Shown here piece after piece: positions 5,535-25,237 of a stretch of 32,000 nt of DNA (the first letter of the stretch is position 1; every line of letters begins with the position of its first letter). A program made the translations under genes and the position numbers. Origin of the DNA: Horticoccus luteus (GTDB lineage: Bacteria > Verrucomicrobiota > Verrucomicrobiia > Opitutales > Opitutaceae). Where the stretch lies: positions 3,840,001 to 3,872,000 of the forward strand of contig NZ_CP080507.1 in assembly GCF_019464535.1 (NCBI RefSeq). The letters run 5' to 3'. Below the pieces are notes generated by a model. The model saw only the letters and a program-made list of their open reading frames with translations, did no database searches and was not told the origin of the DNA.

Positions 5535-6131
5535 AATGAGGTTTCCGCAAAGCGGAGATGGATGAGGTTGAAGAGCAGTCCTGATTTCCGGATCATCCGG
5601 ATTTATCGCGAACTGTGCGGCCTGCTTTGCAACGCGCGTGCCAACACCCCTCGCGCCGTGCTTTCCCGCGCTCCTCCAGCGAGATAAAAAATCAGGATGC
5701 TTTCCTCGCTGCTCGCCGCTGACTCGGAATTGAAATCCGGTCTTCCCAGCCGTGGGAAAGTTGTAAGCGTCGCTTCGGGTGCCTCGTAGATACGCGACAT
5801 ACGAAGTGATAGTCTGCCGGAATGGCGATAACTACGACGGGAGCTGCAGCCTAGACCGCGGTGATCGAGACCGGGGAGCAGCGCGATGCGTTGGGCCGGC
5901 GGAGCGGCGCGCGGAGTTGTTGGCGGCGTATCGGTCGAGGAGGACAGTCCATCGACGACGTGCTGCTCGACGCCGCCCGCGAGTTTGTCGACGCCAGCCA
6001 CGCCCCCGCGCTCGTGGCGTGTTGGGATGCCTTTGACGAGGCCTTGATCTGGCAGCCGCCCGTCGCGCTTTTCACCGTCGCCTTCTCCTGGCAACGCACC
6101 CTCGAGCGGCCCTAGGGAATCGGTTCGATCC

Positions 6132-6170
6132 GGTGATAGGTGACAAACTGTCCGGAGTGATGGGTGACAC
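6132..6170. repeat. direct repeat GTGATRGGTGACA x2 (possible subterminal or terminal sequence of the decayed IS481-family element)
   Basis: GGTGATAGGTGACA at about 6132 and GTGATGGGTGACAC at about 6157, 25 bp apart. They lie just 3' of the transposase remnant on its coding strand, where they read TGTCACC... Confidence 0.35.
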
Positions 6171-6231
6171 TTTTGATAGAGGATAATGAGTTGTTGTAGC
6201 GAGAGGTTTGTAGGTTTGGGCGGAAGATATA

Positions 6232-15156: not shown

Positions 15157-15396
15157 TCATCCGACTTTCACCACGATCGTCTGGCCTGCGATCGTCACGC
15201 GATCGCCCGCCACGAGTTGTTTCCGCTTCCGTGTTTCGAGCGCGCCGTTGAGCAGCACGCCACCCTCGGCGACGAGCTGCTTCGCCGCGCCACCGCTCTC
15301 CGCGAGCCCGCCGAATTTAATGAACTGGCACAACTCGATCGGCACCTCACGCACGGCCACCTCGCGTGGTTCGGAAGAAGCATTTGGATTCGCCAT
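15157..15396 (-). CDS. S4-domain RNA-binding protein (YbcJ-like)
   Basis: ATG at 15396 (MANPNASS...). The stretch IELCQFIKFGGLAESGGAAKQLVAEGGVLLNGALETRKRKQLVAGDRV is the small S4-like fold typical of YbcJ-family proteins. Confidence 0.75.
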   Translation of the reverse strand: MANPNASSEPREVAVREVPIELCQFIKFGGLAESGGAAKQLVAEGGVLLNGALETRKRKQLVAGDRVTIAGQTIVVKVG

Positions 15397-15479
15397 CGCG
15401 CACACGATTCACCGTGACCGCGAGTGAGTCGACGCTCGATTGCACCGGTGTCGACTGTTTGCGGGGCGTGCCGCGTGAA

Positions 15480-15731
15480 CCGCCGCGCGGCGGTTCGCGC
15501 CCATCCGCGGCGAACGCCCCCTCTCGACGGGCGAAAGCGAACGCCGCCGGCACGCGCGCCCGCGACCGGCGCAAGCGGTCGCCGTCCGGCGCTGCGTCCG
15601 CCCATCGGCGGTCGGAGGCCACTACAAAACGCATAAGTGGCGGTCGTAACCGCGGACGCCTCCGAAACGGGCTTGTTCAACCCGCGTCCCGCTGCGCGCT
15701 ACGGCGCAACAGAACGCTCAGAGTTCGGCTC
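15480..15731. repeat. Repeat A copy 1 (long form; conserved ~62-bp core at about 15670-15731, attC-like core 15675-15729)
   Basis: Starts with the 14-bp palindrome CCGCCGCGCGGCGG. Aligns with 19636-19861 along its length (with indels) and with 17700-17862 (more divergent). Core: GTTCAAC cc GCGT ccc GCTGCGC gctacg GCGCAAC aga ACGC tcaga GTTCGGC. The stop codon of ORF 15718-16275 lies inside it. Confidence 0.85.
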
Positions 15732-16275
15732 TGGTTTTCTTTTCTGTTTTTTGGGTGTTCGCATTTACAGATGGCGAAAAAATAAAAAATAATAAAAACA
15801 GCCAGCCGACCCAAGGTATGACGTAGAAAAAAATCATGTAAGGCGAATTACCTAAGTCTCTAGCTCTTTTGATGTGCGCACAAATAAAAGTCCATCCGCT
15901 GAGAATGAAAAACGGCAGACATAAAATTATGGCTAAATCGCCACCGCTGCTGTAATAGCCTTGACCTTGGGACTTGATAATTACTCCGCCGAGGATAAAA
16001 ATAAATGCGCAGCAAAATAGTAAGATCGTGAATATGGATCTTGGGATTTTTCCGTAGGGTGAAAAGAGAATCGATGCGATTCCGACTCCAATAGTCGCTG
16101 TTGCATATCCTCGTTCGGCTTTTAGTAACTGTTCGGCGCGAAATCTTAAGTAATTTGCCTTGGCTTTCTTTTCATCACCTTCGGAAAAGGCCATGGCCTT
16201 AACCCAAATGCCTTGAGATACTTGCTGGGTCTGAAGCTCTTGGAGAGCGGCATTATATGCGTTTTCTTCGGTCAT
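15718..16275 (-). CDS. DUF805-like inner-membrane protein with a soluble N-terminal segment (island cargo 1)
   Basis: AT-rich ORF. Start at ATG 16275 (MTEENAY...) or the in-frame ATG 16293 (MPGQNTM...) inside repeat B. The C-terminal half has about 4 TM segments and the RARDLGNSPYMIFFYVIPWVGWLFLLF motif typical of DUF805/YhaH-type proteins (from memory). Confidence 0.7.
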   Translation of the reverse strand: MTEENAYNAALQELQTQQVSQGIWVKAMAFSEGDEKKAKANYLRFRAEQLLKAERGYATATIGVGIASILFSPYGKIPRSIFTILLFCCAFIFILGGVIIKSQGQGYYSSGGDLAIILCLPFFILSGWTFICAHIKRARDLGNSPYMIFFYVIPWVGWLFLLFFIFSPSVNANTQKTEKKTRAEL

Positions 16276-16291
16276 GGTATTTTGCCCAGGC

Positions 16292-16297
16292 ATTATA
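16292..16297 (-). promoter_or_regulatory. perfect -10 hexamer TATAAT facing out of repeat B1 into cargo ORF 1
   Basis: The minus strand reads gcagcTATAATGcctgggcaaaataccATG. No convincing -35 at 16-18 bp. The same arrangement occurs at 18524-18529. Confidence 0.3.
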
Positions 16298-16422
16298 GCT
16301 GCGATGAAGGAGCGGAAAGCGAAGAGGGTGCTTGTCCCCGGTGAACGCGGGTTACCCTCGAATAGCGCCGATCCGCAGGGGTGTGGCGTGTAACCGAAAC
16401 AACCAAAACCAGAGGCAAGCAC

Positions 16423-16696
16423 ATGAAGCTCAAGCAAAGATACGTGGGCCTGGATGTCCACAAAGATACTATCACGATAGCGACGGCGGAAGGCAGCCGC
16501 GAAGGCGAGTTGCGCGTGTATGGACGGGTGAGTTCAGACCTGCGGATGTTGGAGAAGACGTTGCGCAAGATTCGGATATCGAGATCAATGCGAACGTCTT
16601 TCGTCGAGCTTGGAAACGTGGCGTGCGCAACGTGCTCGGGCGGGGGTGCCCGCAATTCGCTTCGTTTGTCAAGAGTCAAGGCGTGCGGTTTTATGG
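16423..16696 (+). pseudogene. IS110-family transposase, N-terminal fragment
   Basis: The YVGLDVHKDTI signature contains the first catalytic Asp of DEDD transposases. The reading frame degenerates after about 60 codons, and homology to copy 2 ends at 16696. There is a 2-nt indel relative to copy 2. Confidence 0.75.
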
Positions 16697-17592
16697 GGTT
16701 TTCGTCGATGTGTTTGTCAGCGGCCCCACCCATGAGCTGCTGCCCACGCCGACGATCGTGCCCGGGACCGGAGCCCGTATCGTGCAGGCGGGTTACTATG
16801 CCCGGTGGGTCGGGCGGCTGGAACTCACGGTGGACCTGGAAACCAGGAAGGTGATCGAGGCCGCGGGCGAGGCGATCCCCATGAGACATGACCGGACGCC
16901 GGTCGACGCCGCGATGCTGGCCTGGGTGCGGCAGCGGGAGAGTGAATTGTGCCCGGAGGCGAGCGACGTGCTGGTGAAGGACTCCGGGATGTTGACCATG
17001 AATGAGGTGGCCTGGCTGGGAGCGGCGGCGCTGCGGCGCCAGGCAAAAACCGATGTGGGCTTCTGCCATGCCGGGCAGGGTCATCCGCAGTCCGATCTTC
17101 CCGGGACCGCTCGACGTCAACGCCCTGTTCCTCGCCGGCGGGGATCGCGGCAACGCCACGGTGCGCACGGAACTGACCGGCGCGGAGATCGAGGCCTATT
17201 TGCGGGCGTTGGGTGAGCGACAGGATCAGACGAGCTGGTCCGGGTTCAAGGTCGTGTCGGGGGCGGCGAATCCCGGGCGATTGGCCACGGACCTGGAGCC
17301 GGCGCGGAGTTACACGGTGATCATGCCGGCTAAGGAATGGGACACCCGGTTTCTGCGGATGGTCGAAAACGCCAGGAAGTCCAGCCGCGGCAACCCACTC
17401 ACGGCGCGCCCGTTTGCCGCGACTCCCGCCCCGACGGTGTCGTTCACCGTGGCCATGCGAAACTACGTGGAGCAGCTGACGGCGGCGAAACAATCGCTCA
17501 AGGCGGAGGCGGACCGCTTGTCCACCGCGACCGGCGCACGGCCGACCGCCCCGGCCGATTGGGCGGCCACCGCGGGTCAGGCCGGTCGCTGA
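16697..17592 (+). pseudogene. 5'-nucleotidase / metallophosphatase family protein, C-terminal portion, frameshifted
   Basis: VDVFVSGPTHELL ... IVQAGYYARWVGRLELTVDLETRKV ... then, after a frameshift near 17070, VIRSPIFPGPLDVNALF ... VRTELTGAEIEAYLE-like. This resembles the end of the phosphoesterase domain plus the 5'-nucleotidase C-terminal domain. Host-like high GC, native stop at 17592, N-terminus replaced by repeat B1. Confidence 0.6.
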
Positions 17593-17699
17593 AGGCTCCG
17601 GGCGGAGTGCCCGTGCGAGTGGGTGACGCGGCGCGGAGCTCTCTCGTGAACGACGTCCAGGTTTGAGCCGGCAATCCTGCGTGTTGCAGTGTATAAAGG

Positions 17700-17862
17700 G
17701 CGCTCCGCATTTCTCCCCCGCCCGTAGGACCGCCGCGGGTCGGCGCGCCCACAACAAAGCGACTAAGCGCGCTCGTCGCGACGGCCTGCACCCGCAACCG
17801 GGCTTGTTCAACCCGCGTCCCGCTGCGCGCTACGGCGCAGCAGAACGCTCAGAGTTGGGCTC
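17700..17862. repeat. Repeat A copy 2 (divergent extension 17700-17799; conserved core 17800-17862; attC-like core 17806-17860)
   Basis: The core GTTCAAC...GCTGCGCgctacgGCGCAGC...GTTGGGC is near-identical to copies 1 and 3. ORF 17830-18507 reads into the core and stops at the TAG inside the palindrome loop. Confidence 0.85.
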
Positions 17863-18507
17863 CTTCTTCTTCAACATCTCGTCATAGTTCGGTGGAGGTT
17901 CGTGCCGAATCTCAATCCTGGCATTCTCAATCTCGCTGATCTTCTGCACAATGGCCGGCTCGTCAGGATGGAGTTTCGCATACTCTCTCAGGTGCGACAA
18001 GGCCTTCGCCTTGTCTCCTTGGCTGAGGTAGACAAACGCCAGCGTGTAGTGGGCGTCGGTGACGCCAAGTGCCAAAGCCTTCTCCAGATAGGCAATGCTA
18101 TCTTTCTGCCGGGCGGCCGTGGCGGACAGAAAGGCGCCGTAATAGAAATTCGCTCGGCTGTCGTTGGGCTTCAACTCCAGCAGCCGATCGAAAGCCTTGA
18201 AATACTTCTGCGCACAACCCTCGAAATCGAGATTGTGCCCCATCGCATTCGCAAAACCGTCACGAAACAATAGCTCTGGATTGTCGGGATACTGAGCGAC
18301 TGCGGCGTCCAGCATCACAAGCAATTCCCTAAGCTGAGCCTCGATCTGCCTCCGTTCCGCCACCGAAGAAAAACTCGGCGGGAAGTCTTGGGCGTGGGGA
18401 GCGATCACCGACAATGTCGAGTCAATCGACTTCAGGCTCAGCGACACTTCCTTTGCCGACAAACCTGTAACTGCAATCAAGACGACGGTCAAAAAGATGG
18501 AACGCAT
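17830..18507 (-). CDS. secreted TPR-repeat protein (island cargo 2)
   Basis: ATG at 18507 gives the signal peptide MRSIFLTVVLIAVTGLSA. TPR-like helices follow (AQKYFKAFDRLLELKPNDSRANFYYGAFL, YLEKALALG, AHYTLAFVYLSQGDKAKALSHLREYAKLHPDEP). The longer ORF-track form (to 18693) runs antisense through repeat B2. Confidence 0.75.
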   Translation of the reverse strand: MRSIFLTVVLIAVTGLSAKEVSLSLKSIDSTLSVIAPHAQDFPPSFSSVAERRQIEAQLRELLVMLDAAVAQYPDNPELLFRDGFANAMGHNLDFEGCAQKYFKAFDRLLELKPNDSRANFYYGAFLSATAARQKDSIAYLEKALALGVTDAHYTLAFVYLSQGDKAKALSHLREYAKLHPDEPAIVQKISEIENARIEIRHEPPPNYDEMLKKKEPNSERSAAP

Positions 18508-18523
18508 TTGGTTTAGCCCAGGC

Positions 18524-18529
18524 ATTATA
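18524..18529 (-). promoter_or_regulatory. perfect -10 hexamer TATAAT facing out of repeat B2 into cargo ORF 2
   Basis: The minus strand reads gcagcTATAATGcctgggctaaaccaaATG. This is the same geometry as at B1. Confidence 0.3.
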
Positions 18530-18654
18530 GCTGCGATGACGGAGCGGAAAGCGAAGAGGGTGCTTGTCCTTGGTGAACGCGGGTTACGCTCGAAGAGCGC
18601 CGATCGGCAGGGGTGTGGCGTGTAACCGAGACAACCAAAACCAGAGGCAAGCAC

Positions 18655-18926
18655 ATGAAGCTCAAGCAAAGATACGTGGGCCTGGATGTCCACAAAGATA
18701 CAATCACGATAGCGACGGCGGAAGGCAGCCGCGAAGGCGAGTTGCGCGTGTATGGACAGGTGAGTTCAGACCTGCGGGTGTTGGAGAAGACGTTGCGCAA
18801 GATCCGGATAACGGGAGCAATGCGAAGGTCTTTCGTCGAGCTTGGAAACTTGGCGTGTGCAACGTGCTCGGGCGGGGGCCTGCAATTCGCTTCGCTTGTC
18901 AAGAGTCAAGGCGTGCGGTTTTATGG
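18655..18926 (+). pseudogene. IS110-family transposase, N-terminal fragment
   Basis: MKLKQRYVGLDVHKDTITIATAEGSREGELRVYGQVSSDLRVLEKTLRKIR..., truncated at 18926. Confidence 0.75.
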
Positions 18927-18983
18927 CTTTACTTACGGCGGGAGATTATACACCCGCCTTCTCGTTCCTACTGGTTCGGCTTT

Positions 18984-19376
18984 TCATCTGCTGGAATATT
19001 CTCGATGCACCTTATCGAACGGAGCGTCGGCCAACGCATCGTAGACTCGAGTGGAACAGAGCCCGATGACGATCAAGTGCGTCCGCGTGGTCGAATCCCG
19101 CTGAAGAATCGACTTTGCGTCCATCGGATACTGATAGCTGTGTCTATAAAGTGTGTTGCCGACCTTTACGAACGGAAGCCACCGCCAAAACGGGCGTTCG
19201 ATTTCGACCCTCGCAATCAAATCACCGCTTCGCTCTTTTGCGGCCTCTCGATTGCTCGTGGTAGAAGCGAATTGTGACGAGTAGCAGCTGATTAAGCCGG
19301 TCTGATCGATCGCCGCCAAAATCAGCACGGATGCTCCGAGAATCGCTGCGATTTTCTTTTGAGGGAATATGGCCAT
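18984..19376 (-). CDS. small N-terminally anchored/secreted hypothetical protein (island cargo)
   Basis: ATG at 19376 gives MAIFPQKKIAAILGASVLILAAI. AT-rich with no recognisable domain. The ORF-track start at 19400 is a GTG inside repeat C1. Confidence 0.55.
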   Translation of the reverse strand: MAIFPQKKIAAILGASVLILAAIDQTGLISCYSSQFASTTSNREAAKERSGDLIARVEIERPFWRWLPFVKVGNTLYRHSYQYPMDAKSILQRDSTTRTHLIVIGLCSTRVYDALADAPFDKVHREYSSR

Positions 19377-19393
19377 TTTTTGCCGTTCACTTT

Positions 19394-19457
19394 TATTCAC
19401 CCTTACCCGATTGCCTTACCCGAAAGGGATTCATGGGAATAAACATGCACACAACGC
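19394..19457. repeat. Repeat C copy 1 (upstream module with tandem CCTTACCCGA x2)
   Basis: tattcaCCCTTACCCGAttgCCTTACCCGAaaggg..tcatgggaata.acatgcacacaacgc is shared with 21655-21718. It lies immediately 5' (minus-strand sense) of ORF 18984-19376. Confidence 0.8.
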
Positions 19458-19471
19458 GCGACGGCTAAGAT

Positions 19472-19591
19472 GGGGTCAAGACGCTAGTTGGTAATCCCAG
19501 CTTTGAGACGTGCTTATTAATGTTCCATTGCACTACAAGTAGGCAAGGCAGGGCTGTACGATGCAAAATTAACAACTAGTGCCTTGACCCC
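19472..19591. repeat. 120-bp AT-rich element bounded by 19-bp imperfect terminal inverted repeats (MITE-like or long hairpin)
   Basis: GGGGTCAAGACGCTAGTTG at 19472-19490 versus CAACTAGTGCCTTGACCCC at 19573-19591. 16 of 19 positions are complementary, with a central 3-nt mismatch. Confidence 0.6.
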
Positions 19592-19635
19592 GCTCCACGG
19601 CTACAACAACCGGCTGAGCGGGTGGGCCATGCGCT

Positions 19636-19861
19636 CCGCCGCGCGGCGGTTCGTGCCCTTCCGCGGCGGACGCCCTCTCGGCGGACGAAAACCGACCCCG
19701 CCGGCACGCGTGCCTGCGACCGGCGCTGTGTCCGCCACCGGTGGGCGGCCACTACAAAACGCATAAGCGGCGGTCGGAGCCGCGGCCGCCTTCGTCCCAA
19801 GCTTGTTCAACCCGCGTCCCGCTGCGCGCTACGGCGCAGCAGAACGCTCAGAGTTAGGCTC
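19636..19861. repeat. Repeat A copy 3 (long form; attC-like core 19805-19859)
   Basis: Starts with the same CCGCCGCGCGGCGG palindrome as copy 1. The core is GTTCAAC...GCTGCGCgctacgGCGCAGC...GTTAGGC. The core begins 2-3 nt after the TAA stop of ORF 19863-20408. Confidence 0.85.
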
Positions 19862-19862
19862 T

Positions 19863-20408
19863 TTATACATAGCGCTCGATGTGCTTCTTATCAGATAGAA
19901 AAAACGACGCTACGAATCTCGCATTATCGGAGTAGGCAAGCTTCCCAACAGCCGATGTAAAGTGCAGCTCGTGGTCGTGACTGGGCTTCCTTCCAATTAC
20001 GCTCCATGCAATCCAAAGACCGATCAACGCTTCCAACTCTTCTTCTTTCTTCTCGTGGAGCGCGTCGAAACACGGGATAACGTCGGATTCTATCGCTCCG
20101 TGCGGAAGCTGCAAAAGAAAGCTACACAAACCCTGTATAGCTGCGACGAATCGCGAACGAACAGAAAGGTCGATGCCCTGCACGATACCAGCGTGAAGTC
20201 GCGAATAGTCGTGCTTTCCGAGAAAGCGCTCTATGCGCGCAAGAGTGCCGACAATCACTGCACTCTGGTAAATATCGCCGAACAGCGCCTCTTTCTTCTC
20301 AATGCCAAGCTGCGGGAATCGGGCTTCGAGTGGCCCAATCGTGTCCGACGTAAAATTGAAGGCCCACATCAGCACTTGCCCGTGTGGTGTGCGAAGATCA
20401 GCGGGCAT
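19863..20408 (-). CDS. hypothetical protein (about 181 aa, island cargo; last gene of a 3-gene operon)
   Basis: ATG at 20408 (MPADLRTPHGQVLMW...). The ORF-track start at 20420 is TTG. Lower GC than core genes, no recognisable domain, no signal peptide. Confidence 0.6.
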   Translation of the reverse strand: MPADLRTPHGQVLMWAFNFTSDTIGPLEARFPQLGIEKKEALFGDIYQSAVIVGTLARIERFLGKHDYSRLHAGIVQGIDLSVRSRFVAAIQGLCSFLLQLPHGAIESDVIPCFDALHEKKEEELEALIGLWIAWSVIGRKPSHDHELHFTSAVGKLAYSDNARFVASFFLSDKKHIERYV

Positions 20409-20491
20409 ATTTTTTGCCAACGTCAGCAGTCAGCCACGGAGGGGAGCGTCAGTTCCCCGGAGTTGGCTGTGATGCTCTGGATCGGCCTGCT

Positions 20492-20986
20492 TCATTTCTC
20501 GAGGAGTTTCTTCTTCGCAGCCTCAAACTCCGCATCAGTGATGATGCCCTTCTTTCGCAGATCATCGAGCTTGGTAAGCTCGGTGTAGAGATCCGGAGCT
20601 TTCTCTTCTTTTGTCTTAACGTCCGCGGCGATCTTCTCGGTCTTCTCGACCACGATGTCCGCTCGGGGCACTAGAGCTGTGCGCTTCGCTTCGGGATCAT
20701 CTTTGTCAACGACGCGAAACTGGTAATCGAACGACGCGAACTGACCGATCGCCATCGGCGTCTCTTGAGTCGAAAGTGGGATTGCCACTTTCCCTTGCTT
20801 GGCGGCGAACTCATTCGCTTCATGTATAACCTCCGCCTTCATCTTGCTGGCGTTCCCGAATATGCCGCCCTTGTCCGTGCGCGAGATAAAGTATGTGTCT
20901 GGCGAAATCTGCACGACGCCGGGATTGGCGCAACCGGCTAAAATCAGGGAACAGCATGCTAGAAACGTGAGGACTAAGGGTTTCAT
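20492..20986 (-). CDS. lipoprotein with C-terminal SHOCT domain
   Basis: Lipobox MKPLVLTFLACCSLILAGC. The C-terminus LTKLDDLRKKGIITDAEFEAAKKKLL is the SHOCT (short C-terminal oligomerisation) motif. Confidence 0.8.
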   Translation of the reverse strand: MKPLVLTFLACCSLILAGCANPGVVQISPDTYFISRTDKGGIFGNASKMKAEVIHEANEFAAKQGKVAIPLSTQETPMAIGQFASFDYQFRVVDKDDPEAKRTALVPRADIVVEKTEKIAADVKTKEEKAPDLYTELTKLDDLRKKGIITDAEFEAAKKKLLEK

Positions 20987-21633
20987 AATTCTTCTGCCGA
21001 TGTTATAGGTGAGACGCGAGGGGGCGCAGCCACCTCGTTGTCTGTGCCGTCTTGTTCGCCCTCTGCCGGTTTTCGCAAAGATGTCAGCCGATCAAACTGA
21101 TCAGGCGACATGTGAGAAATAACATGAATAGCCGACTTTCCCTCTATCAACCCCCTAATCTTCTTTCTGATCTGGTGCTGATCCTCCTCAATCTCTCCAT
21201 AACCCTTTGGATAATAAGATGAACTCTTTATATGGCCCTTATCAAATTCGTAACCTAAGCATTCCGCCATGTCGTGAAGAAGATCTACGAGCAATTCTGC
21301 TCGCCGATGATTCCATGACTCAGGTGGGTAGCTGTGGTCGCCGAGATGCGCGTGATACAGCTTCCATGCCGACACCACTCGCTTTTCTTCCGCGCCTCGA
21401 TGATCGAACTCGATGTCTATCAGATTCAATGCCTCAACGTGCGTCGGAGACAGTGATGAAGCGCGAGTCGCCATCAGCGTGCGGAACACATGAATCTGCC
21501 GATCACGCTTTTCTTTCTTCAGGCGTAGACCTTCCGTCACGCGAACTGCGAGGTAAGGCCCTGCAAACACCGCGAGAATCATCACGAGGTCGGTCGCTCT
21601 GGCGGTCCAATCTATGGCCAATGCTGCGATCAT
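20983..21633 (-). CDS. N-terminally membrane-anchored hypothetical protein (216 aa; possibly DUF6680-like)
   Basis: ATG at 21633. One N-terminal TM segment (LVMILAVFAGPYLAV), then a helical soluble domain (IHVFRTLMATRASSLSPTHVEALNLIDIEF). The stop overlaps the start of the SHOCT gene (ATGA). The family assignment is from memory and tentative. Confidence 0.65.
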   Translation of the reverse strand: MIAALAIDWTARATDLVMILAVFAGPYLAVRVTEGLRLKKEKRDRQIHVFRTLMATRASSLSPTHVEALNLIDIEFDHRGAEEKRVVSAWKLYHAHLGDHSYPPESWNHRRAELLVDLLHDMAECLGYEFDKGHIKSSSYYPKGYGEIEEDQHQIRKKIRGLIEGKSAIHVISHMSPDQFDRLTSLRKPAEGEQDGTDNEVAAPPRVSPITSAEEL

Positions 21634-21654
21634 GGTTTTCTTCGGCGAACAATG

Positions 21655-21718
21655 TATTCACCCTTACCCGATTGCCTTACCCGAAAGGGGCTCATGGGAA
21701 TAGACATGCACACAACGC
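21655..21718. repeat. Repeat C copy 2 (upstream module with tandem CCTTACCCGA x2)
   Basis: Near-identical to 19394-19457. It lies 22-85 bp 5' (minus-strand sense) of ORF 20983-21633. Confidence 0.8.
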
Positions 21719-21790
21719 TCGGAGTATCAATACTTGCGCAGCTTGGGTAAGTTTTTTCGTCCTAGGCGGGGCACGTTCGTGCGGAATCGA

Positions 21791-21940
21791 CGAAATGCTG
21801 AGGCGTTCCGCCACACGAGCCGCGCGGACGGCAGGGATCAAACGAAACGCTGACGCGTTCCGGCACTCGACTGACGCGGACTGAGACCGATAGCGCGAAA
21901 TGCTCACGCGTTCCGATACAGGACCGGGCGGACCAGCGCC
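21791..21940. repeat. tandem repeat, 52-53-bp unit, about 3 copies, each starting with the imperfect palindrome CGAAAYGCTSASGCGTTCCG
   Basis: 20-mers at 21791-21810, 21843-21862 and 21896-21915. The intervening 32-33 bp also align with each other (..CAC.CGA....CGCGGAC.G..). Located between the island and the stop of the nucleoside hydrolase gene. Confidence 0.7.
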
Positions 21941-21953
21941 AAAAAGGCGTCCC

Positions 21954-23006
21954 TCAATCCTCGTGGCGCACGCGCGCGAGTTTCGGCGGCGCCACCATCA
22001 ACGCTTCGATCACCGCCGCGAGGCGCGCCGGATCGCCGGCAATCTTCACATACGCCTGCGCGCTCCCGTCCGTCTCCACCCAGTTACTATTTCCGTCCGC
22101 CGCCAATTCCACACGCCCACCGCGCACGAGCGTCCAAAATTCTTTCTCCGACCCACGCACCGTATAAAGCGCCGCCGCTTGGTCATAGCTCGGCTTGCCC
22201 TTTTCGATCGCCGCCGGCCCGTGACTCAAAAACTGGTAACGCGTCTCGAACGCGCGGCGCACCGGATTGTGTTTCGCCACCGATTTGAGTCCGGCTCCCG
22301 TAATGAGAACCCGCCCCACTTCGTCGCCCTGCCAGATAATCTCTCCCGGCCACTCCGCCACCACGATGCGCGCCGGCTCGGGATGCGTGGCGATGTTCGT
22401 CTCCGGCTTCGACGACACAGGAAATTCGCCCGCCATGACCACCAGCCGATGCACCTTCTGCCGCACGAGGTCCGGCGCCGCCCGCCACAACGCCGCGAGA
22501 TTCGAGAACGATCCAATGCTGCAAATTGTCACGCTGCCGTCCGGCTGCGCCTGCAGCGTTTCCCGATACACCTTCAACGCGTCCGGCATCGCGTCGTCCG
22601 GCCCCGCGTGATGCGGAAACTCGTCGCGCAACACCGTGGTAAACGTGCTCCGCCGCCGCAGCGCTGTCGGCGCCTGCTTGTCCGTGCCGATCGGAATATC
22701 CCCGCGCCCGTAGTAAGTATTGATTACGTCAACCGCCGCCGCCGAAGCGTTCGTCAAATCCCGGCGATTCGTCACGACGGCCAGGATCCGGCACTCGCCG
22801 CGATCCGCCAGCGCATGCAACACCGCGAGCGCACCCACATCGTCGCAATCCCCCGACATGTCGGTGTCGAGGATCACCGCCACCGGAGCCGCCGCGGGCC
22901 CCGCCGGCGCAACGGCGCAAAGCCCGCCGCACGCGAAGATCAACATCGCCAGCCGTCCGGCCGTCGCAGCCGCCACGCGCAAAAACCAAAATCGCCAAAG
23001 CGTCAT
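21954..23006 (-). CDS. secreted inosine/uridine-preferring nucleoside hydrolase family protein
   Basis: An N-terminal hydrophobic signal, then VILDTDMSGDCDDVGALAVLHAL, which is the DTDxxxDD aspartate cluster of IUNH-family hydrolases. Confidence 0.8.
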   Translation of the reverse strand: MTLWRFWFLRVAAATAGRLAMLIFACGGLCAVAPAGPAAAPVAVILDTDMSGDCDDVGALAVLHALADRGECRILAVVTNRRDLTNASAAAVDVINTYYGRGDIPIGTDKQAPTALRRRSTFTTVLRDEFPHHAGPDDAMPDALKVYRETLQAQPDGSVTICSIGSFSNLAALWRAAPDLVRQKVHRLVVMAGEFPVSSKPETNIATHPEPARIVVAEWPGEIIWQGDEVGRVLITGAGLKSVAKHNPVRRAFETRYQFLSHGPAAIEKGKPSYDQAAALYTVRGSEKEFWTLVRGGRVELAADGNSNWVETDGSAQAYVKIAGDPARLAAVIEALMVAPPKLARVRHED

Positions 23007-23206: not shown

Positions 23207-25237
23207 ATGTTGAAATTCCTCACCCCATCCGGCCGCGCCGCCGCCGTCTTATTCGTCGCCCTTGTCTCGCTCTGCCCGGCGCGGCTCCCTGCCGCCCACC
23301 AATGGCAGCCACCCGATCCGGCCGAACTCGCCGCCTCGGTCCCCCGGGTCGATCCCGACGCCGGCGCGGAGATTCTCCTCCGCGAAGTCACGGAAACCGA
23401 CGAGGACAACACGATCCCGCAACGCACCGTTTACGTGCGCGCCAAAGTCTATTCCGAACGCGGCCTCGCCCAACTCGCCAAGGTCGAAATCCAATATGAT
23501 AAGTCGAGTTCCATCCGGGAGATTGCCGCCCGCACCATTCTTCCGGATGGCACGATCATACCGCTGCGGCCGGATGAAATTTTCGATCGCGAGGTTCTAA
23601 AAACCGGCAGCGAGCGCGTGAAGGTGAAATCATTTGCGCCTCCCGGCCTGGTGCCCGGCAGCATGGTCGAATATTTCTATCGTGAGCAAATGGACTATTT
23701 GCCCCGCACTCGCGTGTTTTCCCTCCAAGCCGACCTGCCGACGCAGTGCGTTCGCTTCCATATCCGGCCGAACAACTATCACGACCTCCAAGCCCTGTTC
23801 TTCAATTGCGCCCAGCAAAATTTCGCGGCCGACAAAAACGATTTCCGCCACCTCGAGCTGACCAATGTGCCCGCGCGTTTGAACGAGCCCTTCGCTCCGC
23901 CCGCGCTCGAAATTGAACCCACCGTACTCATTTACGATAACGTCATGTTCTTCGGCGCCACTTCCTTGCCGTGGACCGAACGCGGCAAGCTTCTCCAATA
24001 CTGGGTCGATAAGTTGCTCAAACCCACCAAACGGCTCAAGGCCGTCGCGGAGAAACTTACGACCCCGCAGGATTCCGCCCAGGACCGGATCACGAAGTTT
24101 TACAACTATTGCCGCACTCAGATTGTAAATCGCGACGACGACACCGCCGGATTTACCGACAAGCAGCGCGACAAGTTGCCGCCCAATATCGACCCCGATA
24201 AGACGCTGAAACTCGGCCACGGCGTCACGCAGGATATTAACCTGCTCTTCGCCGCCCTCGCTCGCACCACCGGACTCGACGTGCGGCTGGCGCTGACGGG
24301 GGACCGCAGTTTTATCTTTCCCACCCCTGCACTCACCGAAGCGTTTGCACTGCCGAAGCTGATTGTGGCCATCCATGTCGGAGCGGATTGGACCTACTTC
24401 GATCCCGGCAATCGCTACCTCGCTCCGGGGCAACTCGATTGGAATAATTCCGACATCCAGGCCGTCATCGCCGACGCGGACAACGGCCAGATTGAGCGCG
24501 TGCCGGGCGTGCCTGCGGAGGACTCTATCCGTCATCGCACGGGCACCTTCAACCTCGATCCCGAGGGCAATCTCGACGGTGATGTGCACGTTGACTACTC
24601 CGGCCTTTGGGAGGTCGAGATGAAGAACACGCTGGACGCTCAGACCCCCGACGAACGCGCCACGACGATCAAAAACGAAATCGTGGACGTGTTACCGCTC
24701 GCGGAAGTCACGAGCATCGCAGTCGAGGGCGCCGCCGATCCCTTGGGTCGGCTCACCGTCCGCTATCACCTGCGGGTGCCCCACTACGCCGAGCGCACCG
24801 GCTCGCGCCTGTTCGTCCAACCCGCCGTGTTCCAAAAGGGAGCTGCGGCGGTCTTCGTCAAACCCGACCGCAAAACCAATCTTATCTACAAATATCGTTT
24901 CACTGAGTCGGATAAGATGAGCATCAAGCCGCCGGAAGGCTACACGCTCGAAGCGGGGAACGCTCCCGCCAACCTCGATCTCGGCGAGGCCGCCAGCTAT
25001 CGCGTCTCGCTCGGCGTCACGAAGAAGACCCACACGATCATCTACCAGCGCGAGTTCGCTCAGCACATCATGTATCTGCCACGCGAGAATTACGCCGCGT
25101 GGAAACAGGCGCTCGACGAGATTCGCACTCGCGACGGTCACACCCTCTCCCTCCGCCGCCCCGCCCCCGCGGCTGCGGAAACGCCCCCGGCCGACGCCGC
25201 CACCCAACCCGCGTCCGCCGCGCCCACGGGCCTCTGA
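23207..25237 (+). CDS. DUF3857 / transglutaminase-like / DUF3858-type protein (catalytic Cys apparently replaced)
   Basis: Signal peptide, and an N-terminal DUF3857-like region with the architecture typical of this family. The core aligns to the downstream paralog, but GHGVTQDINLLFAALARTTGLDV has Thr where the paralog has Cys (GDCKDKSTLLRALLAAHGVES). Confidence 0.75.
   Translation: MLKFLTPSGRAAAVLFVALVSLCPARLPAAHQWQPPDPAELAASVPRVDPDAGAEILLREVTETDEDNTIPQRTVYVRAKVYSERGLAQLAKVEIQYDKSSSIREIAARTILPDGTIIPLRPDEIFDREVLKTGSERVKVKSFAPPGLVPGSMVEYFYREQMDYLPRTRVFSLQADLPTQCVRFHIRPNNYHDLQALFFNCAQQNFAADKNDFRHLELTNVPARLNEPFAPPALEIEPTVLIYDNVMFFGATSLPWTERGKLLQYWVDKLLKPTKRLKAVAEKLTTPQDSAQDRITKFYNYCRTQIVNRDDDTAGFTDKQRDKLPPNIDPDKTLKLGHGVTQDINLLFAALARTTGLDVRLALTGDRSFIFPTPALTEAFALPKLIVAIHVGADWTYFDPGNRYLAPGQLDWNNSDIQAVIADADNGQIERVPGVPAEDSIRHRTGTFNLDPEGNLDGDVHVDYSGLWEVEMKNTLDAQTPDERATTIKNEIVDVLPLAEVTSIAVEGAADPLGRLTVRYHLRVPHYAERTGSRLFVQPAVFQKGAAAVFVKPDRKTNLIYKYRFTESDKMSIKPPEGYTLEAGNAPANLDLGEAASYRVSLGVTKKTHTIIYQREFAQHIMYLPRENYAAWKQALDEIRTRDGHTLSLRRPAPAAAETPPADAATQPASAAPTGL

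Follow-up and report, generated by a model that had tools for sequence, protein, structure and literature searches.

Why should two copies of the beginning of a transposase gene stand, with the same ends, before two unrelated genes of a single cassette array? In the window, by which we mean the whole 32-kb stretch of Horticoccus luteus DNA that was analysed, MAFFT alignment and repeat search (families D1 and D9) show that positions 16284-16696 match 18516-18926 collinearly, with 94.9% identity (392/413 columns, one 2-nt indel). Similarity ends abruptly on both sides of each copy and the flanks are unrelated, in agreement with the initial annotation, which had described a sharply bounded, duplicated unit in unrelated DNA. 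The unit is composite. The left end of an IS110-family element supplies the first ~290 nt, and an unrelated RAYT-type element supplies the last ~120 nt. We propose, with a probability of about 0.75, that the repeats are dead left-end stumps of an attC-targeting IS1111-type element, each capped by a decayed RAYT-type fragment. The analysis shows the identity of both halves, the target site, the fold of the leader and the absence of the 3' RNA domain. The parts of the two copies are as follows.

16273-16286, minus strand: flank of copy 1, with the start codon of cassette gene 1 (CAT, 16273-16275) and TTTTGCC (16280-16286), recognised from the left junctions of relatives.
16287-16422, plus strand: IS left end and 5' leader of copy 1, from 78% nucleotide identity to the full-length relative L008 starting at its first base, and from the leader alignment and fold of 21 relatives.
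16294-16303: left subterminal inverted repeat of copy 1, TATAGCTGCG.
16328-16339 and 16411-16422: strands of the leader helix of copy 1.
16345-16353: the 9-mer of copy 1.
16423-16575, plus strand: first 51 codons of the IS110-family (DEDD) transposase in copy 1, from BLASTP to L008.
16576-16696, plus strand: decayed RAYT-type (Y1 transposase) miniature of copy 1, from an exact shared 15-mer and 17-mer and from alignment.
16666-16680: right repeat core of this miniature, TTGTCAAGAGTCAAG, with the element terminus near 16696.
18505-18518, minus strand: flank of copy 2, with the start codon of cassette gene 2 (CAT, 18505-18507) and the half-site TTTAGCC (18512-18518).
18519-18654, plus strand: IS left end and leader of copy 2, with the left repeat at 18526-18535, helix strands at 18560-18571 and 18643-18654, and the 9-mer at 18577-18585.
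18655-18807, plus strand: first 51 transposase codons in copy 2, from BLASTP (37/51 to L008).
18808-18926, plus strand: decayed RAYT-type miniature of copy 2, with a 2-nt deletion relative to copy 1 and the right repeat core at 18896-18910.

The composite also occurs outside the window. A third copy, L001, comes from another sample, and a fourth, L002, also from another sample, is ~70%-diverged while remaining collinear and keeping the same architecture. The two window copies and L001 are equidistant, with pairwise identities of 94-95%. The junction between the IS and the second element, as well as the right end, is the same in L001 and collinear in L002, which bears out the earlier view that the copies have one origin and are not independent decay products. 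The claim that they share both boundaries exactly was correct as to the sharpness of the ends, but the leftmost 3 nt, GCC (16284-16286 and 18516-18518), belong to the conserved target half-site TTTTGCC and lie outside the element. The IS end falls at 16287/16288 in copy 1 and 18519/18520 in copy 2, and the exact insertion point is given to within ~1 nt because an A may be common to the IS end and the target. A metagenome scan with the leader pattern returned one more family member (L088) and zero new composite copies.

The IS110-family (DEDD) origin first suggested for the coding part is supported by comparison with L008, whose 372-aa transposase matches NF033542 (E=1e-71) and also PF01548 and PF02371, the N-terminal DEDD/RuvC-like and C-terminal domains of the family. 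The fragment is identical to this protein at 38/51 residues (75%) in copy 1 and 37/51 (73%) in copy 2, both BLASTP alignments stop at residue 51, and the nucleotide match to L008 positions 1-287 (78%, blastn) ends at 16574 and 18806. Transposase homology accordingly spans only 51 codons and not the ~91 of the initial annotation, the remaining ~120 nt being the other mobile element. The first catalytic Asp (in GLDVHK) is the only catalytic Asp left. Searches of Pfam, NCBIfam and PDB with the 91-aa or 52-aa fragment gave no match, and family identity was therefore taken from the full-length relatives. At E<=0.001, a sequence-level search matched no solved structure. Among plasmid-borne transposases, the closest reach only ~47% identity. 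On these alignments, the window fragment is most probably derived from an IS110-family member and is itself incomplete.

Eight full-length relatives of ~1.6 kb were found in Opitutaceae. Their left end reads (S)AGACAY followed by TATAGCTGCG and their right end CGCAGCTAGA followed by TCA, that is, with extensions of 6-7 nt and 3 nt; the 5' leader is ~135-150 nt long and the 3' non-coding region 340-390 nt. The parent is assigned as IS1111-type on this architecture of subterminal repeats, short 5' leader and 3' non-coding region, which matches the IS1111 description in PMC11187229. The window copies retain the left subterminal repeat only, and no trace of the remainder of the IS, of right-end DNA or of the 3' region was detected elsewhere in the 32-kb window.

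The position of these elements is highly regular. A cassette start codon (CAT) lies 11-29 nt from the IS end in 20 of 21 distinct left junctions, and most of the 21 left flanks fit the consensus TTTTGCC. On the right, seven of eight junctions read AACG[AT]TT and continue into attC-like imperfect palindromes. The lineage is thus site-specific and inserts in one orientation in the attC R' box, at ~GTT^(N)GGCAAAA in the cassette sense; the earlier link to attC-targeting IS1111 relatives proved right, as the relatives sit in attC R' boxes. Insertion lands directly upstream of the start codon of the next cassette and places the transposase gene in antisense to the cassettes. The canonical left junction is seen in both window copies, each time at a distance of 12 nt from a cassette ATG, and the two genes concerned are unrelated; the copies share the same left end because insertion is site-specific and occurs just before the cassette ATG. 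In L025, a bona fide integron integrase is encoded ~3 kb from the IS copy (TIGR02249, 362 bits, cut-off 265). A tblastn search of the 32-kb window with an IntI1 query found no integrase homologue. With co-oriented ORFs and attC-like sites at 15460-21720, the array in the window looks like an attC cluster with no integrase in view. Its features that concern the stumps are listed here.

15718-16275, minus strand: cassette gene 1, 185 aa, DUF805 membrane protein (Pfam PF05656, E=7e-10), directly downstream of stump 1 in the cassette sense.
17830-18507, minus strand: cassette gene 2, encoding a 225-aa TPR protein whose N terminus has a signal-like segment, directly downstream of stump 2.
17806-17860, minus strand: A-type attC of gene 2 (repeat families D2 and D4; sequence read directly).
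20411-20422, plus strand: unoccupied target-like site TTTTTGCCAACG at the attC R' box that immediately precedes cassette gene 4, by comparison with the joined flanks of full-length relatives.

The last of these sites holds no IS and serves as a model of the empty target. The minus strand of the A-type attC consists of R'' GCCCAAC, a 14-bp stem and R' GTTGAAC, and sister copies lie at ~15675-15729 and 19805-19859; all three are free of IS. An A homologue in L015 shows compensatory changes in the stem. When the A repeat, its long tail and repeat B were compared with the full-length IS, only a short leader match was found, at E 0.1 or higher.

The right-hand part of the unit has a different source. 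It has an exact 15-mer in common with both terminal repeats of a Y1_Tnp element present in L003-L006; an exact 17-mer is shared with L089, and the same motif was seen by eye in L092. L089 and L092 show that the RAYT-type element is independent of the IS. The Y1 element encodes a 329-aa Y1_Tnp protein that carries the database label 'REP element-mobilizing transposase RayT', belongs to a family with >1,800 relatives at E<1e-20, and matches PF01797 above cut-off; with the RAYT model NF047646, it reaches 54.9 bits, which is below the 80-bit cut-off. The right repeat of the miniature agrees at 15/15 positions in its core and ~25/31 overall, the left repeat is degenerate (~50% similar), and the fold is no better than that of shuffled sequence (z = +1.8 and +0.6). 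The right terminus of this multi-copy RAYT-type element is the sharp right boundary of the unit. In L003, a full RAYT-type element occupies approximately the same IS position, where that IS copy is truncated, and in L020 another truncated IS copy breaks off at a ~85-nt miniature with related repeats. Two other candidates for the right 120 nt were rejected. The 5' continuation of the neighbouring plus-strand ORF (5'-nucleotidase-like, E=0.081) was rejected because copy 2 and L001 share the 120 nt and not the downstream DNA, and because the Y1 terminal repeat is present; a conserved antisense ORF across the miniature was rejected as its frames differ between copies.

A composite with fixed ends could also be read as a non-autonomous, MITE-like mini-IS of 413 nt that was moved in trans, either by an IS1111-type transposase with its RNA or by one-ended, RAYT-type action. 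The same two boundaries do occur in at least three unrelated contexts and in a diverged fourth, divergence is star-like (94-95%), and each left junction observed resembles a canonical site-specific IS insertion (that of L002 is off its contig). However, mini-IS mobilisation in this IS family has been found to require both IS ends (~50 and ~46 bp) together with target flanks (PMC11187229), and the unit carries the left end only: by eye, its right end has no counterpart of the right subterminal repeat CGCAGCTAGATCA, and the window holds no IS right-end DNA. Moreover, the left repeat of the miniature is degenerate, its fold does not exceed shuffles, the right flanks lack a common target motif with an attC remainder adjoining L002 only, and just four copies were found across very large databases. 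We therefore regard a mini-IS as unlikely. In the one-ended variant of this explanation, the RAYT-type transposase would start at the intact right repeat and end at the terminal hairpin of the IS.

Under the stump explanation, an IS1111-type parent from Opitutaceae (Verrucomicrobiota) would have inserted in attC R' boxes, and an IS variant that already contained the miniature would have reached several attC sites while both of its ends were intact. Each copy may later have been cut short on its right side, through deletion or recombination anchored at the miniature. All that survives of the IS is its left terminus, the leader of 136 nt and 51 codons. The stumps have no right end, little of the transposase and none of the 3' RNA domain on which guided transposition of IS1111-type elements depends, and they are therefore capable neither of guided movement nor of supplying a guide RNA. 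Two observations run counter to the relic view: the identical composite is found in three or four contexts with different flanks on both sides, and equidistant copies, together with a ~70%-diverged L002 of the same architecture, look more like a propagating lineage than passive relics. That the composite is still propagating or under selection in the arrays, through one-ended movement, an outward promoter or attC recognition by a leader motif, nonetheless seems to us highly unlikely. In the third of these routes, the motif (C)GGGACGCGGGTT, a mirror of the L'/R' half of the A-type attC, would act beside the 3' RNA.

The leader deserves separate attention. It is 136 nt long in the window copies, and the alignment of 21 relatives yields a consensus fold in which 97.9% of cells are paired and seven pairs show compensatory changes; on four of five measures, 0/500 shuffles were as good. 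In a covarying 11-bp helix, the 5' part of the leader pairs with the Shine-Dalgarno region, and the covarying fold predicts that the leader is a translational-control leader that sequesters the RBS. Among the stems that had been proposed from the window alone, CGCTC/GAGCG is a hairpin that covaries across relatives, but GGTTAC/GTAACC lies outside the consensus fold; it is present in the window sub-lineage and absent from L008 and the other relatives checked.

The initial annotation instead proposed that the leader encodes a bridge/seek-type guide RNA, in which ACGCGGGTT would direct insertion by pairing with the A-type attC at its L'/R' junction. The 9-mer does occur in both leaders and, on the minus strand, in each of the three A cores, some relatives extend it to 11-13 nt (L023 has CGGGACGCGGGTT), and in A it ends exactly at GTT, the insertion position of the IS family in other attC sites. 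The match alone, however, is not significant, because the chance that any 9-mer is common to a 140-nt leader and a 55-nt core of this composition is estimated at ~0.1; the word also appears once in unrelated DNA (25206-25214), against an expected count of 0.53 in the window. It is near-invariant in the 21 leaders, whatever the neighbouring attC, and its GCGG is base-paired to CCGC further downstream, a pairing in which L003 shows one compensatory change (GTGG/CCAC). Against the real right flanks, AACG[AT]TT (..AATCGTT, ..AAACGTT), the motif agrees in the final GTT only. No relative sits in an A-type attC, all five A-type copies seen being free of insertions, and in L015, where a full-length IS lies beside an A-type cassette, the leader and A motifs agree at 6/9 positions. 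The leaders contain no conserved TTTTGCC/GGCAAA or AACGWTT segment, and thus no guide complementarity to both target flanks was found. In addition, the stumps have no transposase that could use a guide. Rfam 15 gave no relevant family for the window, the leader, the full-length relatives or their 3' region (E<=1-10). With an IS1111-type architecture, a leader that folds as an RBS helix and a covarying RNA 3' of tnp, a guide role for the leader is not supported, and we consider it largely refuted.

That covarying RNA is far larger than the structure in the leader. In the relatives, the 3' region forms a strongly covarying structure of ~280 nt; of its 68 consensus pairs, 24 show compensatory changes, pairing reaches 94%, and 0/500 shuffles were as good. 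The guide RNA of IS1111-type elements, the seekRNA, is encoded downstream of tnp (PMC11187229), and from this placement and the covariation we infer that the 3' domain of the relatives may be the guide RNA. The window stumps do not contain it. There are two candidate guide segments, GGGCAA, which is complementary to the left flank, and AGAUCAG, which is the same as the right end or circle junction; both are suggestive, and they were set aside as no covariation with differences in the flanks was found.

Compatible with the stump explanation is the possibility that a stump is kept as an outward-facing promoter or as the 5' leader of the following cassette. On its minus strand, the left end reads GCTATAATGCCTGGGC, which contains TATAAT without a mismatch, each of the three close copies has the cassette ATG some 20 nt further downstream, and the order of stump, gene and A-type attC recurs with three different genes. 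Group IIC-attC introns, another attC-specialised mobile lineage, have outward promoters that can express the downstream cassette, as has been described (PMC3001079); unlike the present element, they are retroelements. Nevertheless, there is no acceptable -35 hexamer, a sigma-70 scan calls no promoter at the outward face of the stump, TATA(A/G)T is part of the conserved subterminal repeat in every family member, and the proximity of the ATG is fully accounted for by insertion-site specificity. Such retention is, in our judgement, quite unlikely.

Elements of the IS1111-attC group include ISKpn4, ISPst6, ISPa25 and similar, and IS1111 stands within the IS110 family of ISfinder; IS elements that target attC are best known from proteobacterial clinical integrons. 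IS621-type elements carry their bridge RNA in the 5' (left-end) region. The present lineage resembles the IS1111-attC group in its DEDD/IS110-type transposase, in subterminal inverted repeats with short asymmetric extensions, in site- and orientation-specific insertion at one end of an integron attC, and in a short 5' leader with a long structured non-coding region downstream of tnp (PMC11187229). It differs in that it resides in chromosomal cassette arrays of Opitutaceae rather than in proteobacterial integrons, in that the 3' domain of the relatives measures ~280 nt whereas described seekRNAs measure 70-100 nt with a 154-nt precursor, and in that the window holds only dead left-end stumps. 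With IS621, it shares the broad transposase family, and RNA-guided recombination would be expected of the intact parent; in contrast to IS621, its 5' leader folds into a helix that sequesters the RBS, and the large covarying RNA follows tnp on the 3' side. The right 120 nt resemble RAYT/REP systems, those of the REP-associated tyrosine transposases (Y1 HUH), in being short, non-coding, flanked by inverted repeats and furnished with the terminal repeat of a Y1_Tnp element, although that element scores 54.9 against the 80-bit cut-off of the NCBIfam RAYT model and, unlike REPIN-like miniatures, the present one is degenerate in its left arm and forms no convincing hairpin.

An attC-targeting IS1111-type lineage is thereby documented in integron arrays of Verrucomicrobiota. 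Its defined target, the R' box before a cassette start codon, and its large covarying 3' RNA may help the mining of RNA-guided recombinases. For annotation, both repeats are best treated as inert scars of former insertion sites and not as bridge-RNA genes. Finally, in three IS lineages the truncated copies break off at a RAYT-type miniature, which offers a small clue to how such scars form.

The repeat pair at 16284-16696 (copy 1) and 18516-18926 (copy 2) represents two inert scars of a parent insertion sequence (IS) of the IS110 family and IS1111 type. In a MAFFT alignment, the two copies are collinear with a single 2-nt indel and lose similarity abruptly on both sides, and their pairwise identity is 94.9%. 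A repeat search of the window recovered the same pair (families D1 and D9), in agreement with the initial annotation, which had described two units with both boundaries in common. Each copy adjoins the start codon of a low-GC small gene on the minus strand.

Features beside the unit or near an IS copy in the window and in related contigs
15718-16275, minus strand: gene 1, DUF805 protein, beside copy 1
Right flank of copy 1: high-GC degenerate ORF
17830-18507, minus strand: gene 2, TPR protein, beside copy 2
Right flank of copy 2: middle of the gene 3 attC hairpin
Right flank in L001 (contig with a third copy): other DNA
Right flank in L002 (contig with a diverged version): attC remainder
L025 10628-11581 (Opitutaceae MAG carrying an IS copy): complete integron integrase, TIGR02249 above cut-off

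The GC content is approximately 50-55% across 15.46-21.72 kb and approximately 65% in the rest of the window. Six co-oriented small ORFs lie on the minus strand of this low-GC block (15460-21720), encoding a DUF805 protein, a TPR protein, a 130-aa protein, a 185-aa protein, a SHOCT lipoprotein, and a DUF6680 protein, and an attC-like hairpin follows each of them. The block looks like an integron cassette array without an integrase, as no integron integrase homologue was found across the 32-kb window. High-GC core genes border the array, namely 15157-15405 (S4-domain protein) and the minus-strand ORF 21954-23006 (putative nucleoside hydrolase on visual reading).

A protein database search using the 92-aa reading frame of the unit returned only four proteins. 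Among the contigs with relatives, the entire unit is present a third time in L001, with both ends the same, between an A-type attC repeat plus another small gene (left) and unrelated DNA (right), while L002 carries a collinear, roughly 70%-diverged version. L003-L006 encode the leader and approximately 50 codons followed by a complete 329-aa Y1 transposase (Y1_Tnp) gene between ~30-bp inverted repeats, and L007 encodes an ordinary IS110-type N-terminus. When genome collections were scanned using the N-terminal 52 residues, the closest relatives belonged to Opitutaceae and other Verrucomicrobiota.

The left ~290 nt of the unit were identified with L008, a high-coverage contig of 1,534 nt encoding a 372-aa protein that matches NF033542 'IS110 family RNA-guided transposase' (E=1e-71) and both family Pfam domains, which bears out the IS110-family origin proposed initially. 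At the nucleotide level, the window copies align with L008 from base 1 through nt 287 (16288-16574 at 78% and 18520-18806 at 77.5% identity). Protein identities are 38/51 for copy 1 and 37/51 for copy 2, and the alignment stops at residue 51; thus, the transposase remnant comprises 51 codons, not the ~91 first assigned, and contains the first catalytic aspartate only. Finding a full-length copy in relatives had been proposed as a check, and eight copies of ~1.6 kb were found (L011, L013, L015, L021, L022, L023 twice, and L027). Their left end is (S)AGACAYTATAGCTGCG and their right end is CGCAGCTAGATCA, forming 10-bp subterminal inverted repeats with extensions of 6-7 nt and 3 nt; the 5' leader spans ~135-150 nt and the region 3' of tnp 340-390 nt. 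Such features, including 7 (or 6) and 3 bp extensions, separate IS1111 from IS110 proper according to Siddiquee et al. (PMC11187229), and the full-length relatives share those of IS1111. No further pieces of the IS were found anywhere in the window.

The target of the IS can be read from its junctions in relatives. Of 21 distinct left junctions, 20 have a reverse-complemented ATG at a distance of 11-29 nt from the IS end, and the consensus TTTTGCC fits most of the left flanks; one further base on the left does not vary within an IS lineage and is for this reason probably IS-derived. On the right side, 7 of 8 junctions have AACG[AT]TT and then an imperfect palindrome (GAGCC...GGCTC...GGTTGG type). 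In the orientation of the small genes, these junctions are attC: R'' (RYYYAAC), a stem that includes an extra-helical base, and R' (GTT). The insertion point lies directly after GTT, with the next cassette start codon ~12 nt further on, and an empty target, TTTTTGCCAACG, is present at 20411-20422 upstream of gene 4. In L025, an integron integrase (TIGR02249, 362 bits with a cut-off of 265; 46% identical to IntI1) is encoded ~3 kb from an IS copy, indicating that IS-occupied arrays belong to genuine integrons. The junction and attC evidence thus identifies the family as an attC-targeting IS1111 lineage, the same kind of element as the known ISKpn4, ISPst6, and ISPa25 (PMC11187229), and the attC connection drawn in the initial annotation is upheld by the placement of relatives in R' boxes. 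Both window copies and L001 retain the canonical left junction, which is why the left boundaries of the copies coincide and why the left GCC, formerly counted within the repeat, is target DNA.

The right ~120 nt (16576-16696 and 18808-18926) exhibit no similarity to the IS and end in TTGTCAAGAGTCAAGGCGTGCGGTTTTATGG. The 15-mer TTGTCAAGAGTCAAG occurs exactly in both inverted repeats of the L003-L006 Y1_Tnp element (expected count 0.28 per window with up to 3 mismatches allowed), approximately 25 of 31 terminal bases agree with the L003 right end, and an exact 17-mer is in common with L089, another contig carrying such an element. The terminal repeats of L089 and of a further contig, L092, carry the same motif when read by eye. 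The left arm is conserved at about half of its positions only, and the segment folds no better than shuffled sequence. The Y1 protein scores above the PF01797 cut-off and below that of the RAYT model NF047646; its family is very large (1,872 members at E<1e-20), and many of them lie on ~1.1-kb contigs and bear the JGI label RayT. No IS fragment precedes the element in L089 and L092, so the RAYT-type element is an independent mobile element. L003 has a complete element at approximately the point in the IS that marks the start of the window miniature. On this evidence, the unit is a composite of the IS left end to codon 51 and a decayed RAYT-type miniature, and its sharp right boundary is the right terminus of the miniature. 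RAYT-type elements with terminal inverted repeats lie at ~1482-1570 of L020 (a ~85-nt miniature) and at 1155-2215 of L003 (with the full 329-aa gene). In these two other lineages, a truncated IS is broken exactly where the element lies, which suggests that RAYT-type elements are involved in truncating the IS. A ~90-nt insertion (~145 nt replacing ~55) near codon 25 of a family-member transposase gene in L029 (~6076-6219) is unrelated to the miniature.

The three close copies (two in the window, one in L001) differ pairwise by 5-6%, and the distance between the window copies is no smaller than their distance to L001; L002 puts the origin of the composite further back. Because the internal junction and the right end are shared, independent decay is ruled out, as the initial annotation had argued in favor of one origin. 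The left junctions resemble separate site-specific insertions ahead of three different genes. We prefer a reading in which the IS would first have acquired the miniature at codon 51, becoming a non-autonomous, two-ended element spread in trans to several attC sites, and the right part of each copy would later have been lost via deletion or recombination anchored at the miniature. That the composite is itself mobile finds little support. The stumps are without the 3' RNA domain, the right end, and most of the transposase, and movement of mini-IS constructs in the IS1111 family required both ends and target flanks (PMC11187229), from which we infer that they are immobile by this route. Selection of the stump as an outward promoter is likewise little supported: the minus strand carries GCTATAATGCC ~20 nt ahead of the ATG, but a usable -35 is lacking and a promoter scan made no call. 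In the same sub-lineage, L035 (5865-6075) exhibits another truncation, with the left end and ~23 codons joined straight to an attC remainder (GCGTTCAAGATGAGCC...); here the deleted part ends almost exactly at the IS right boundary.

The leader had been proposed to encode a bridge RNA. A consensus fold of 21 non-identical leaders pairs GUGCUUGUCCCC with GGAGACAAGCAC, the Shine-Dalgarno region up to the AUG; this outer helix surrounds a GCGG/CCGC stem, and the innermost element is a hairpin of variable sequence, to which the CGCUC gaa GAGCG hairpin noted in copy 2 corresponds. In total, 97.9% of cells are paired, 7 of 18 pairs show compensatory changes, four of five measures have observed values that none of 500 column shuffles reaches, and slid-partner controls give 29-49% pairing. 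Single window leaders are of unremarkable stability (z = -0.3 and -0.95), and the GGUUAC/GUAACC stem described earlier is missing from more distant relatives. The leader is thus structured as claimed, with a structure that sequesters the ribosome-binding site in place of a bridge-RNA role. Such sequestration is a common means by which insertion sequences block translation from read-through transcripts.

The 9-mer ACGCGGGTT, suggested previously as a possible guide toward A, occupies columns 67-75 of the leader alignment and is unchanged in most of the 21 leaders (single-base variants in five). Its GCGG forms the 5' side of the inner stem; a change to GTGG in L003 is matched by CCGC -> CCAC on the partner strand. 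The DNA beside real insertion points (...TAATCGTT, ...GAAACGTT, and ...TTGAACGTT) has only GTT in common with the 9-mer, and none of five A-type attC copies (three in the window, L001, and L015) contains an insertion. In L015, a full-length IS lies one cassette away from an A-type attC, where the A sequence is ACGCTGGTT and that of the leader GCGCGGATT; the two agree at 6/9 positions without co-variation. With an expected count of 0.53 per window, the 9-mer is not rare in this composition, and an isolated extra ACGCGGGTT occurs at 25206-25214 in unrelated high-GC DNA. The leader-to-A match reaches 11-13 nt in some relatives (E >= 0.1 in that small search). The match is most likely fortuitous or the product of a structural constraint, and we conclude that the 9-mer is not a target guide.

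In four members of IS1111, among them the attC-targeting ISKpn4 and ISPst6, the transposase-bound seekRNA derives from the region 3' of tnp and bears short matches to both target strands (Siddiquee et al., PMC11187229); by analogy, the guide RNA of the present lineage probably lies in the same region. Here, seven sequences (L011, L013, L015, L021, L022, L023, and L027) form a highly conserved multi-helix domain of ~280 nt with a long closing helix (GGCGGCAA..CAGGGACCGGGC paired with GCCCGGUCCCUG..UUGCCGCC) and 68 pairs, 24 of which show compensatory changes. Pairing holds in 94% of cells (36-40% in slid controls), and 0/500 shuffles match on all five measures. We regard this domain as a candidate long seekRNA. 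Its conserved unpaired GGGCAA is the complement of the left flank TTGCCC, and its conserved unpaired AGAUCAG corresponds to the right end or circle junction; no covariation of these segments with flank differences was found, and they may serve as leads only to a guide function. No Rfam model matches the leader or the 3' region.

The parent element adds a new member to the attC-targeting IS1111 group; to our knowledge, such elements are little described in its phylum. Its transposase is ~47% identical to the nearest plasmid-borne IS110-family genes and has no sequence-detectable relative among solved structures. Of the initial interpretation, the family, the shared origin, and the attC link stand; a bridge RNA in the leader and a 9-nt guide do not.

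Other repeats and fragments also occur in and beside the array. The frame abutting stump 1 (16697-17592, plus strand, high-GC) runs against the cassette direction with an apparent frameshift near 17090; its sole match is weak (5'-nucleotidase C-terminal, E=0.081), and it is probably a pseudogene fragment. Three imperfect direct repeats of ~40 nt each (GAAAYGCTSASGCGTTCCG...GCGGAC), read by eye at 21790-21925 just past the second repeat B, received no call from Tandem Repeats Finder. Two of the A-type attC copies sit inside a longer GC-rich repeat (15464-15732 and 19620-19862; ~245-270 nt, 79% identical) that runs ~200 nt past R' in the cassette sense and whose tail has no similarity to the IS; the middle copy (17740-17863) consists of the attC part only. 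Repeat B (67 nt, 94% identical; 19394-19460 and 21655-21721) lies directly upstream, in the cassette sense, of the gene 3 and gene 6 start codons and has an R'-like end (...GAACGGCAAAAAATG or ...GTTCGCCGAAGAAAACCATG); it could be a promoter, an attI-like segment, or an ORF-less cassette.
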